This document shows positions 7,618 through 7,880 of a stretch of 64,000 nucleotides of DNA, one piece after another (positions within the stretch are counted from its first letter, which is position 1; each line of letters opens with the position of its first letter). Source of the stretch: Eledone cirrhosa (lineage: Eukaryota); NCBI GenBank assembly GCA_964016885.1, contig OZ024763.1, forward strand, positions 12,276,001-12,340,000, written 5' to 3'. A program made the translations under genes and the position numbers. The notes under the pieces were generated by a model. That model searched no databases. It was not told where the DNA came from and worked only from the letters and a program-made list of their open reading frames with translations.

Positions 7618-7730
7618 TATGTATGTATATATATATATGTATATATATATGTATGTATGTATACATGTTTATTACGTTCCTTCCTCTTTTCACTCTCTAC
7701 ATTTCTATCTCAATTTTATTCCTCATTCTA

Positions 7731-7765
7731 TCTTTGATGAAGGACTTGTGTCCAAAACATAAAGA
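7731..7765 (+). ncRNA. Decayed minimal hammerhead ribozyme (within element ~7665-7870)
   Basis: tctt-TGATGA-A-GGAC ttgt GTCC-AAAA-CAT-aaaga; C3 lost, G12>A. Confidence 0.55.
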
Positions 7766-7869
7766 CTCTTTTCCTACTGCATCAAGAGTTAAACTAATAT
7801 ATTTCATTTCTCCAAAATGGCTGCCTGAGTACACACATGCCCTCTCTCTCCCTTTCACGCTCTCTCTCT

Positions 7870-7880
7870 CTATATATATG

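Follow-up and report, generated by a model that had tools for sequence, protein, structure and literature searches.

A unit-length permuted copy of a dispersed hammerhead repeat in Eledone cirrhosa and candidate routes to its origin

Positions 7665-7870 of the 64-kb stretch of DNA analyzed here (the window) bear on how Penelope-like elements build head-to-tail tandems and on what their hammerhead ribozymes do. A unit-length permuted copy is a footprint able to separate a circular template from template jumping, and in a family with thousands of copies the question becomes countable in the full assembly. A sequence-only reading had placed the same segment downstream of the ribozyme at 7812-7850 and upstream of it at 45587-45622, and had linked the permuted order to reverse transcription of a circular or tandem RNA (retrozyme-like) or to a tandem pLTR junction. 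Alignment and positions bore out the observed order. Of its interpretation, the head-to-tail pLTR-type junction was supported, and the retrozyme version was not; the copy is one unit long, which a circular or end-joined template would yield.

The window is microsatellite-rich eukaryotic DNA and contains five hammerhead cores of one family (7734, 38921, 39783, 45707, and 56394), which are pairwise 68-95% identical. The usual order of the family is head, A-run, pyrimidine tract, hammerhead, 3' end, and optional tail. It is exemplified on the plus strand by the copy at 45583-45826, which has microsatellite on both sides and consists of a head (45583-45623), an A-run (45624-45630), a pyrimidine tract, a decayed hammerhead (45703-45738), and a tail (45781-45826). 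Two younger plus-strand copies, at 39687-39903 and 56292-56514, have cores that are 95% identical, intact hammerheads (39779-39814, with a predicted cut after 39810, and 56390-56425), and tails, the second with (TA)n behind it. They have a common 5' head, unlike that at 45.6 kb. An old, tail-less copy with its core at 38921 (38820-38984, plus strand) has a decayed second hammerhead 5' half 97 nt upstream. All five copies end 60-120 nt after the hammerhead position C3, the hammerhead thus lying near the 3' end, and two 3' ends about 45 nt apart were found: at approximately +74 (7.7 kb) and +63 (38.9 kb), and at approximately +119 in the three tailed copies. Units in the window measure 179-244 nt with 32-41% GC. 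Since the copies are flanked by microsatellites, target-site duplications are hard to read. No inverted partner of a family copy was seen in the window.

The additional 5' half at 38820-38855 shares derived changes with the 38921 copy (14 of 15 nt), and it apparently breaks off close to the cleavage-site position. Its A/T run is also present in the 45 kb copy without a hammerhead, and the likeness may be due to chance.

The copy at 7.7 kb corresponds to the 45.6 kb unit opened at its A-run (45624-45630), with the head placed last. In pairwise comparison of these two window copies, 7665-7808 aligned with 45631-45780 (113 of 142 positions identical) and 7808-7850 with 45583-45623 (36 of 41). Relative to the unit 45583-45780, only the 7-nt A-run is missing from 7665-7850, and there is no overlap. 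The head begins at the same base in both copies (7808 corresponds to 45583). The first 9 nt of the segment as delimited in the sequence-only reading (7812) lie 78 nt after C3, at a distance of approximately 47 nt from the 3' strand of helix I; the same 9 nt in the 45.6 kb copy (45587) lie 120 nt before C3. At the junction a tail-less 3' end is joined to a 5' end, approximately 47 nt past the cleavage site, which itself stays intact in mid-copy. The permutation is therefore real.

On the plus strand, the permuted copy starts with the pyrimidine tract upstream of the hammerhead (7665-7729, colinear with 45631-45702), followed by a decayed minimal type I hammerhead, predicted to be inactive (7730-7765), a postribozyme segment that runs to the tail-less 3' end known from the family (7766-7808, matching up to 45780), and the moved segment, which is the 5' head of the unit (7808-7850). 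Beyond 7808 there is no similarity to the tails of other copies. A CT-rich extension (7851-7870) is largely a local duplicate, spaced by 20 nt, of 7836-7850 (direct repeat, 87%). Behind it lies a (TA)n-type microsatellite (7871-8482), the likely target, and on the 5' side an (ATGT)/(TA) microsatellite (7615-7664) forms the tail of a young neighboring repeat (7358-7659). The pyrimidine tract next to this microsatellite leaves the 5' boundary weakly defined: by itself, 7665-7729 was weakly above shuffles, which reached its score in 88 of 2,000 cases against the 45 kb copy and in 36 of 2,000 against the 38 kb copy. Because this part of the alignment is pyrimidine-rich and weak by itself, the length of one unit holds to within roughly 10-15 nt.

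Directly 5' of the permuted copy, two young related repeats are arranged head to tail (6851-7659). They are 93-95% identical to 29017-29441 and 21520-21821 and about 72% identical to each other. Both terminate with a small hairpin followed by a microsatellite tail, and an AT-rich palindrome is present in one of them (7532-7584). A reverse-complement likeness between the head and the end of the neighboring repeat (7605-7613) spans 9 nt only, and a relationship between the two was dropped for this reason.

By blastn, the two heads aligned over 43 columns with 36 identities (E value of 2e-6). They were mutual best non-self matches among 3,196 window tiles (score of 50; next scores, 34 and 28), and none of 5,000 dinucleotide shuffles reached this score (maximum, 31). 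Random pairs of real window sequences reached it in 585 of 19,659 cases, and low-complexity-filtered pairs in 215 of 30,000; since the window is full of other repeats, this control shows only its richness in repeats, and the filtered pairs listed at a score of 50 were other repeats and satellites of the window. A further candidate is an origin at the DNA level, in which a unit left a dimer by looping out as a DNA circle and was reinserted, or an artifact of assembly order. A DNA circle would yield an exact one-unit permutation too, the locus sits between long microsatellites, and two circularly permuted Penelope contigs have been ascribed to assembly collapse (PMC3846280). On the other hand, the junction itself lies in nonrepetitive sequence, the window is without N, and the 7.7 kb head, with 7 differences in 43 columns, is not a duplicate of the 45 kb head. 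We consider an origin of this kind improbable.

The moved segment could in principle be an independent small repeat, lying beside the element by chance in both places. Three of the five window copies (38921, 39783, and 56394) have no such segment on either side, and the head showed no similarity to the sequences with which these three copies begin at 38, 39, and 56 kb. In addition, the segment is partly of low complexity, and its summed depth in public contigs is approximately a thousandth of that of the core. These contigs, from three runs of one sample in one study, were compared with 45572-45835 at 80% likeness. Between 4,148 and 4,269 contigs matched per run, nearly all on the core, with a summed depth that is no copy number. 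Of 29 joints between matching parts, 15 were listed. In 13 of these the head (45607-45621) is linked to the downstream core, in one the core is linked to the tail, and the last returns from 45773 to 45710. The 13 head-to-core joints occurred in 13, 16, and 14 contigs of the three runs, corresponding to about 35, 49, and 51% of the summed depth of the head, and we estimate that approximately 1% would be expected by chance at the core density of the window. At 80% likeness, joints often come from repeats; here, repeats were what was sought. Because the listed joints tie it to the downstream core on the same strand, the head is part of the element. Chance adjacency in both window copies has a probability of about 1e-4. 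An independent repeat, which the sequence-only reading had named as its own refutation, is therefore very improbable, given 13-16 linking contigs in each run.

The permuted order (3' end to head) was not found among the 15 listed of the 29 joints, and the 7.7 kb locus need not be in the contigs. A permuted joint would show up in shorter contigs than a joint in the usual order, and all such joints would fall into a single entry. The permuted order thus looks rare, unlike the many starts that a circle would offer; starts varying along a single circular consensus, the check suggested earlier, were not seen among the window copies and the listed joints. A second joint going back, from 45767 to 45723, was listed apart. 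Together with the first, and with the 97-nt pair 38820/38917, it is a sign of tandems in the family. The main loose ends behind 45772-45777, including 45773, carry tail-like letters. The contigs leave 45653-45661 uncovered, and none spans the whole of 45572-45835.

In the family motif, helices I and II are each 4 bp long, helix II is preceded by one extra base, and helix III is palindromic. A type I descriptor was passed at 39779-39814, at 56390-56425, and at one unrelated site, with no matches in 30 block shuffles; thus, two of the five copies have an intact core with helices I and II. In the intact copies, helix III can form a 6-bp self-duplex (-5.5 kcal/mol, compared with +2.2 kcal/mol for the 7.7 kb copy). 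The ribozyme noted earlier in both copies is in fact decayed. The motif at 7730-7765 failed the descriptor, with C3 (7734) lost, G12 read as A, and the palindrome broken; at 45.6 kb, G12 is also read as A and the palindrome is lost. The losses of G12 and of the palindrome would fit CpG decay, and both hammerheads are predicted to be inactive. In the public contigs, helix I, G12, and the palindrome are all recovered when the majority letter is taken (84-91% of summed depth in run X1), G12 and the palindrome G each being present in 84% of the summed contig depth. No Rfam hammerhead was detected at gathering score in the window, or at E values up to 10 in 39650-39950 and 7640-7900. The minimum-energy folds of the five copies were no better than those of shuffles, as expected because the motif has a 4-bp helix I. 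A canonical hammerhead would have a 6-bp helix I and loop 1-loop 2 contacts; the family is of the minimal type.

Because of the minimal hammerhead, the two 3' ends, the (TA)n flanks, and the hammerhead-to-hammerhead tandems, the family probably represents 3' terminal repeats (pLTRs) of a Penelope-like element. The unit of approximately 200 nt resembles pLTRs and solo pLTRs of endonuclease-containing elements (193-218 bp in PMC3846280), and the minimal hammerhead, optional 3' tail, partial tandems, and (TA)n flanks are also shared with Penelope pLTRs. By its target and by the comparison family described below, the likeness is to the Neptune type. Described tails measure 30-40 nt, whereas those of the window family measure approximately 45 nt and come without a linked reading frame; no reverse transcriptase or GIY-YIG frame was seen in translations upstream of four window copies. 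The metazoan Penelope minimal type I hammerheads described in PMC4209133 have the same extra base between positions 9 and 10.1, G10.1-C11.1 pair, 4-bp helix I, palindromic helix III, and thousands of dispersed single motifs. In contrast, helix II has 4 bp here and 7-8 bp in the schistosome families (PMC4209133), no Rfam model matches the window family, and its 7.7 kb copy is decayed.

Published work already covers pLTR hammerheads, partial tandems, tails, and retrozymes derived from pLTRs (bioRxiv 10.64898/2026.07.22.740005), and 7665-7870 is one decayed, unusual copy in a known class of repeat. An octopus repeat annotation describes 31 recently active Penelope-like families, with hammerheads absent from what its main text offers (PMC13282606), and the window family may be among them. 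We found no account of a dispersed unit-length permuted pLTR copy in the literature searched, in which subscription papers are thinly represented.

A family-specific pattern gave no matches in metagenome contigs or in viral contigs. A relaxed hammerhead pattern yielded 62 loci in metagenome contigs, representing a family from other hosts; they share essentially the 26- to 28-nt core with the window family and not the flanks. Among 61 of these comparison loci, 46 were colinear with one of them (L050). Their 5' ends lay at -15 to +1 in 33 of 42 loci, and their 3' ends at +72 to +91 in 12 and at +104 to +123 in 18 of the 41 loci with enough flank. Partners were inverted in 18 cases and direct in three, and none of the 46 colinear copies was permuted. 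Upstream of the hammerhead in locus L048, a C-x4-C-x2-C motif followed by a GIY-YIG-like stretch was read by eye in the translation. This is the pattern of Neptune/Nematis elements (PMC8557442); Pfam, PDB, and BLASTP searches gave no confirmation. With Pfam, 50 of the 68 open frames of at least 110 amino acids in the comparison loci showed no GIY-YIG domain and one weak reverse transcriptase match (L059). Protein P0002 (L033) has full-length relatives with a reverse transcriptase domain, and the hammerhead there may be a separate insertion; NCBIfam gave no match for P0002, and the Atlas gave only DUF8422, on about half of the cluster members. By analogy, the comparison family supports the view that the window family may work like a Penelope pLTR, without proving membership. 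In four of the seven long comparison loci, a likeness of 7-15 nt to the AC/CT part of the head was found at -106 to -111. This likeness hints weakly that the head may derive from a 3' untranslated region; in the comparison family, the matching region is located within a longer one.

Two comparison loci contain three hammerhead units each, at a spacing of about 205 nt in L057 (2790-3270) and of about 80-90 nt in L015. They are retrozyme-like arrays arising from a pLTR family.

For 7665-7870 itself, we favor, with a probability of about 0.42, a decayed unit-length permuted pLTR-type copy made in one insertion by a template jump on linear RNA. A Penelope reverse transcriptase would be supplied in trans, and the nicked AT-rich target would prime synthesis at the internal A-run of the RNA. 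The head would then be copied to the 5' end of the RNA, after which the enzyme would jump to the tail-less 3' end of that RNA (or of another one), stopping on its return to the A-run. The ribozyme would have no part in making the copy. Two copies point to the head as the probable 5' end of the RNA. At the junction, the 3' end of the unit falls where the 38 kb copy also stops and where the two go-back joints leave the unit (45773 and 45767). Internal priming at A-runs is a feature of L1 elements. Reverse transcription in Penelope starts inside the RNA at two sites, which define the optional tail, and the one Penelope enzyme studied cuts AT-rich DNA and can dispense with hammerhead cleavage in vitro (PMC11167929). 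For R2, template jumping has been demonstrated (PMC8857657), and it has been proposed for Penelope (PMC3846280). Against the template jump stand the single locus, the weakly defined 5' boundary, the described Penelope start sites, which are at the tail and not at an internal A-run, and the end-to-end jump, which would hold by analogy. Further points against it are that the listed joints make up 15 of 29, that no reverse transcriptase or endonuclease was linked to the window family, and that the comparison family has the counterpart of the head, the presumed RNA 5' end, within a longer 3' untranslated region.

Close behind the template jump comes an ordinary Penelope partial tandem with later loss, which we hold to be somewhat less likely. 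Here, a 5'-truncated, tail-less copy would be followed by a longer copy, the 3' part of which (tract, hammerhead, and tail) was later deleted in the microsatellite-rich flank. Partial tandems with a tail at one end only are standard for Penelope elements (PMC8557442, PMC8969392, PMC3846280), and tandem joints exist in the window family (the go-back joints and 38820-38984). The 7.7 kb copy is also old (its core is 78-86% identical to those of three other copies) and abuts 600 nt of (TA)n. Penelope partial tandems consist of a unit and a partial unit, and the second unit at 7.7 kb stops after the head, leaving one permuted unit. The partial tandem needs a second event that ends at the truncation point of the first copy; the chance that two independent breaks fall as close as 7 nt missing without overlap is about 8-16%. 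Moreover, a profile search for a hammerhead remnant between 7870 and 38820 gave only nonsignificant matches (E values up to 10).

We think it unlikely that a covalently closed, retrozyme-like RNA circle was the template, i.e., that a dimer was cut by two hammerheads and ligated and one round was copied from the A-run. The locus would then be the fossil of one round of reverse transcription on a closed 200-nt RNA from a Penelope terminal repeat with a minimal hammerhead. If so, it would be the footprint of the proposed circular Penelope intermediate, and more permuted copies should be present among the thousands in the genome. The one-unit permutation, the core kept intact by the family majority, and the unit size and GC content (33-41%) would fit a circle. 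Circular templates have been suggested for Penelope (PMC4209133), and circles have been demonstrated for canonical retrozymes (PMC7229834). Metazoan non-LTR retrozymes (PMC7229834; bioRxiv 10.64898/2026.07.22.740005) are similar in size, low GC content, type I hammerhead, zero coding capacity, and likely Penelope derivation, and the window units lie within the retrozyme range of 150-450 bp and GC under 50%. However, non-LTR retrozymes have tandem arrays, canonical hammerheads, and demonstrated circular RNA (same sources), whereas the window family is dispersed and minimal-type and ends away from the cleavage site.

A circle needs genomic dimers that already hold the junction, and none was seen among the 15 listed of the 29 joints. 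It also predicts many permuted copies, and one was seen, with no spread of start points; in the comparison family, permutation was absent from all 46 colinear copies. Minimal hammerheads cleave poorly (PMC4209133). The circular folds of all six stretches resembled those of shuffles (z scores of -0.94 to +0.5, 100 shuffles each), a weak test with decayed copies. The cleavage site is not an end point of any of the five window copies with a full core, although it may be one for the decayed half copy at 38820, and the window contains no intact tandem array: no two intact family motifs lie within 16 kb of each other, and among the matches listed (up to 41 kb) no array was found at the 7, 38, and 39 kb copies. 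The retrozyme-like origin suggested earlier is thus not supported, the hammerhead also being of the minimal Penelope type.

The window contains other elements as well. A 371-bp element after a (TA)n run (61722-62092) has 43-bp terminal inverted repeats (95%) and encloses, on the minus strand, an intact type I hammerhead of another family with a 6-bp helix II (61857-61899). A further copy of its arm lies at 60858-60889. A MITE-like element may here have taken up a Penelope end, or the whole may be an inverted Penelope structure. A motif upstream of this hammerhead (approximately 61950, minus strand) is similar to the head start at 45587-45598, which presumably resembles a YY1 site; such a motif would be consistent with the head acting as a promoter. 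Two copies of a GC-rich perfect hairpin repeat lie in opposite orientations at 24572-24640 and about 63475-63540. The repeat matched a loose hammerhead pattern and failed the descriptor. Finally, two near-identical tRNA-like sequences on the minus strand (18654-18711 and 24358-24415) reached the Rfam gathering score and are likely SINE heads.
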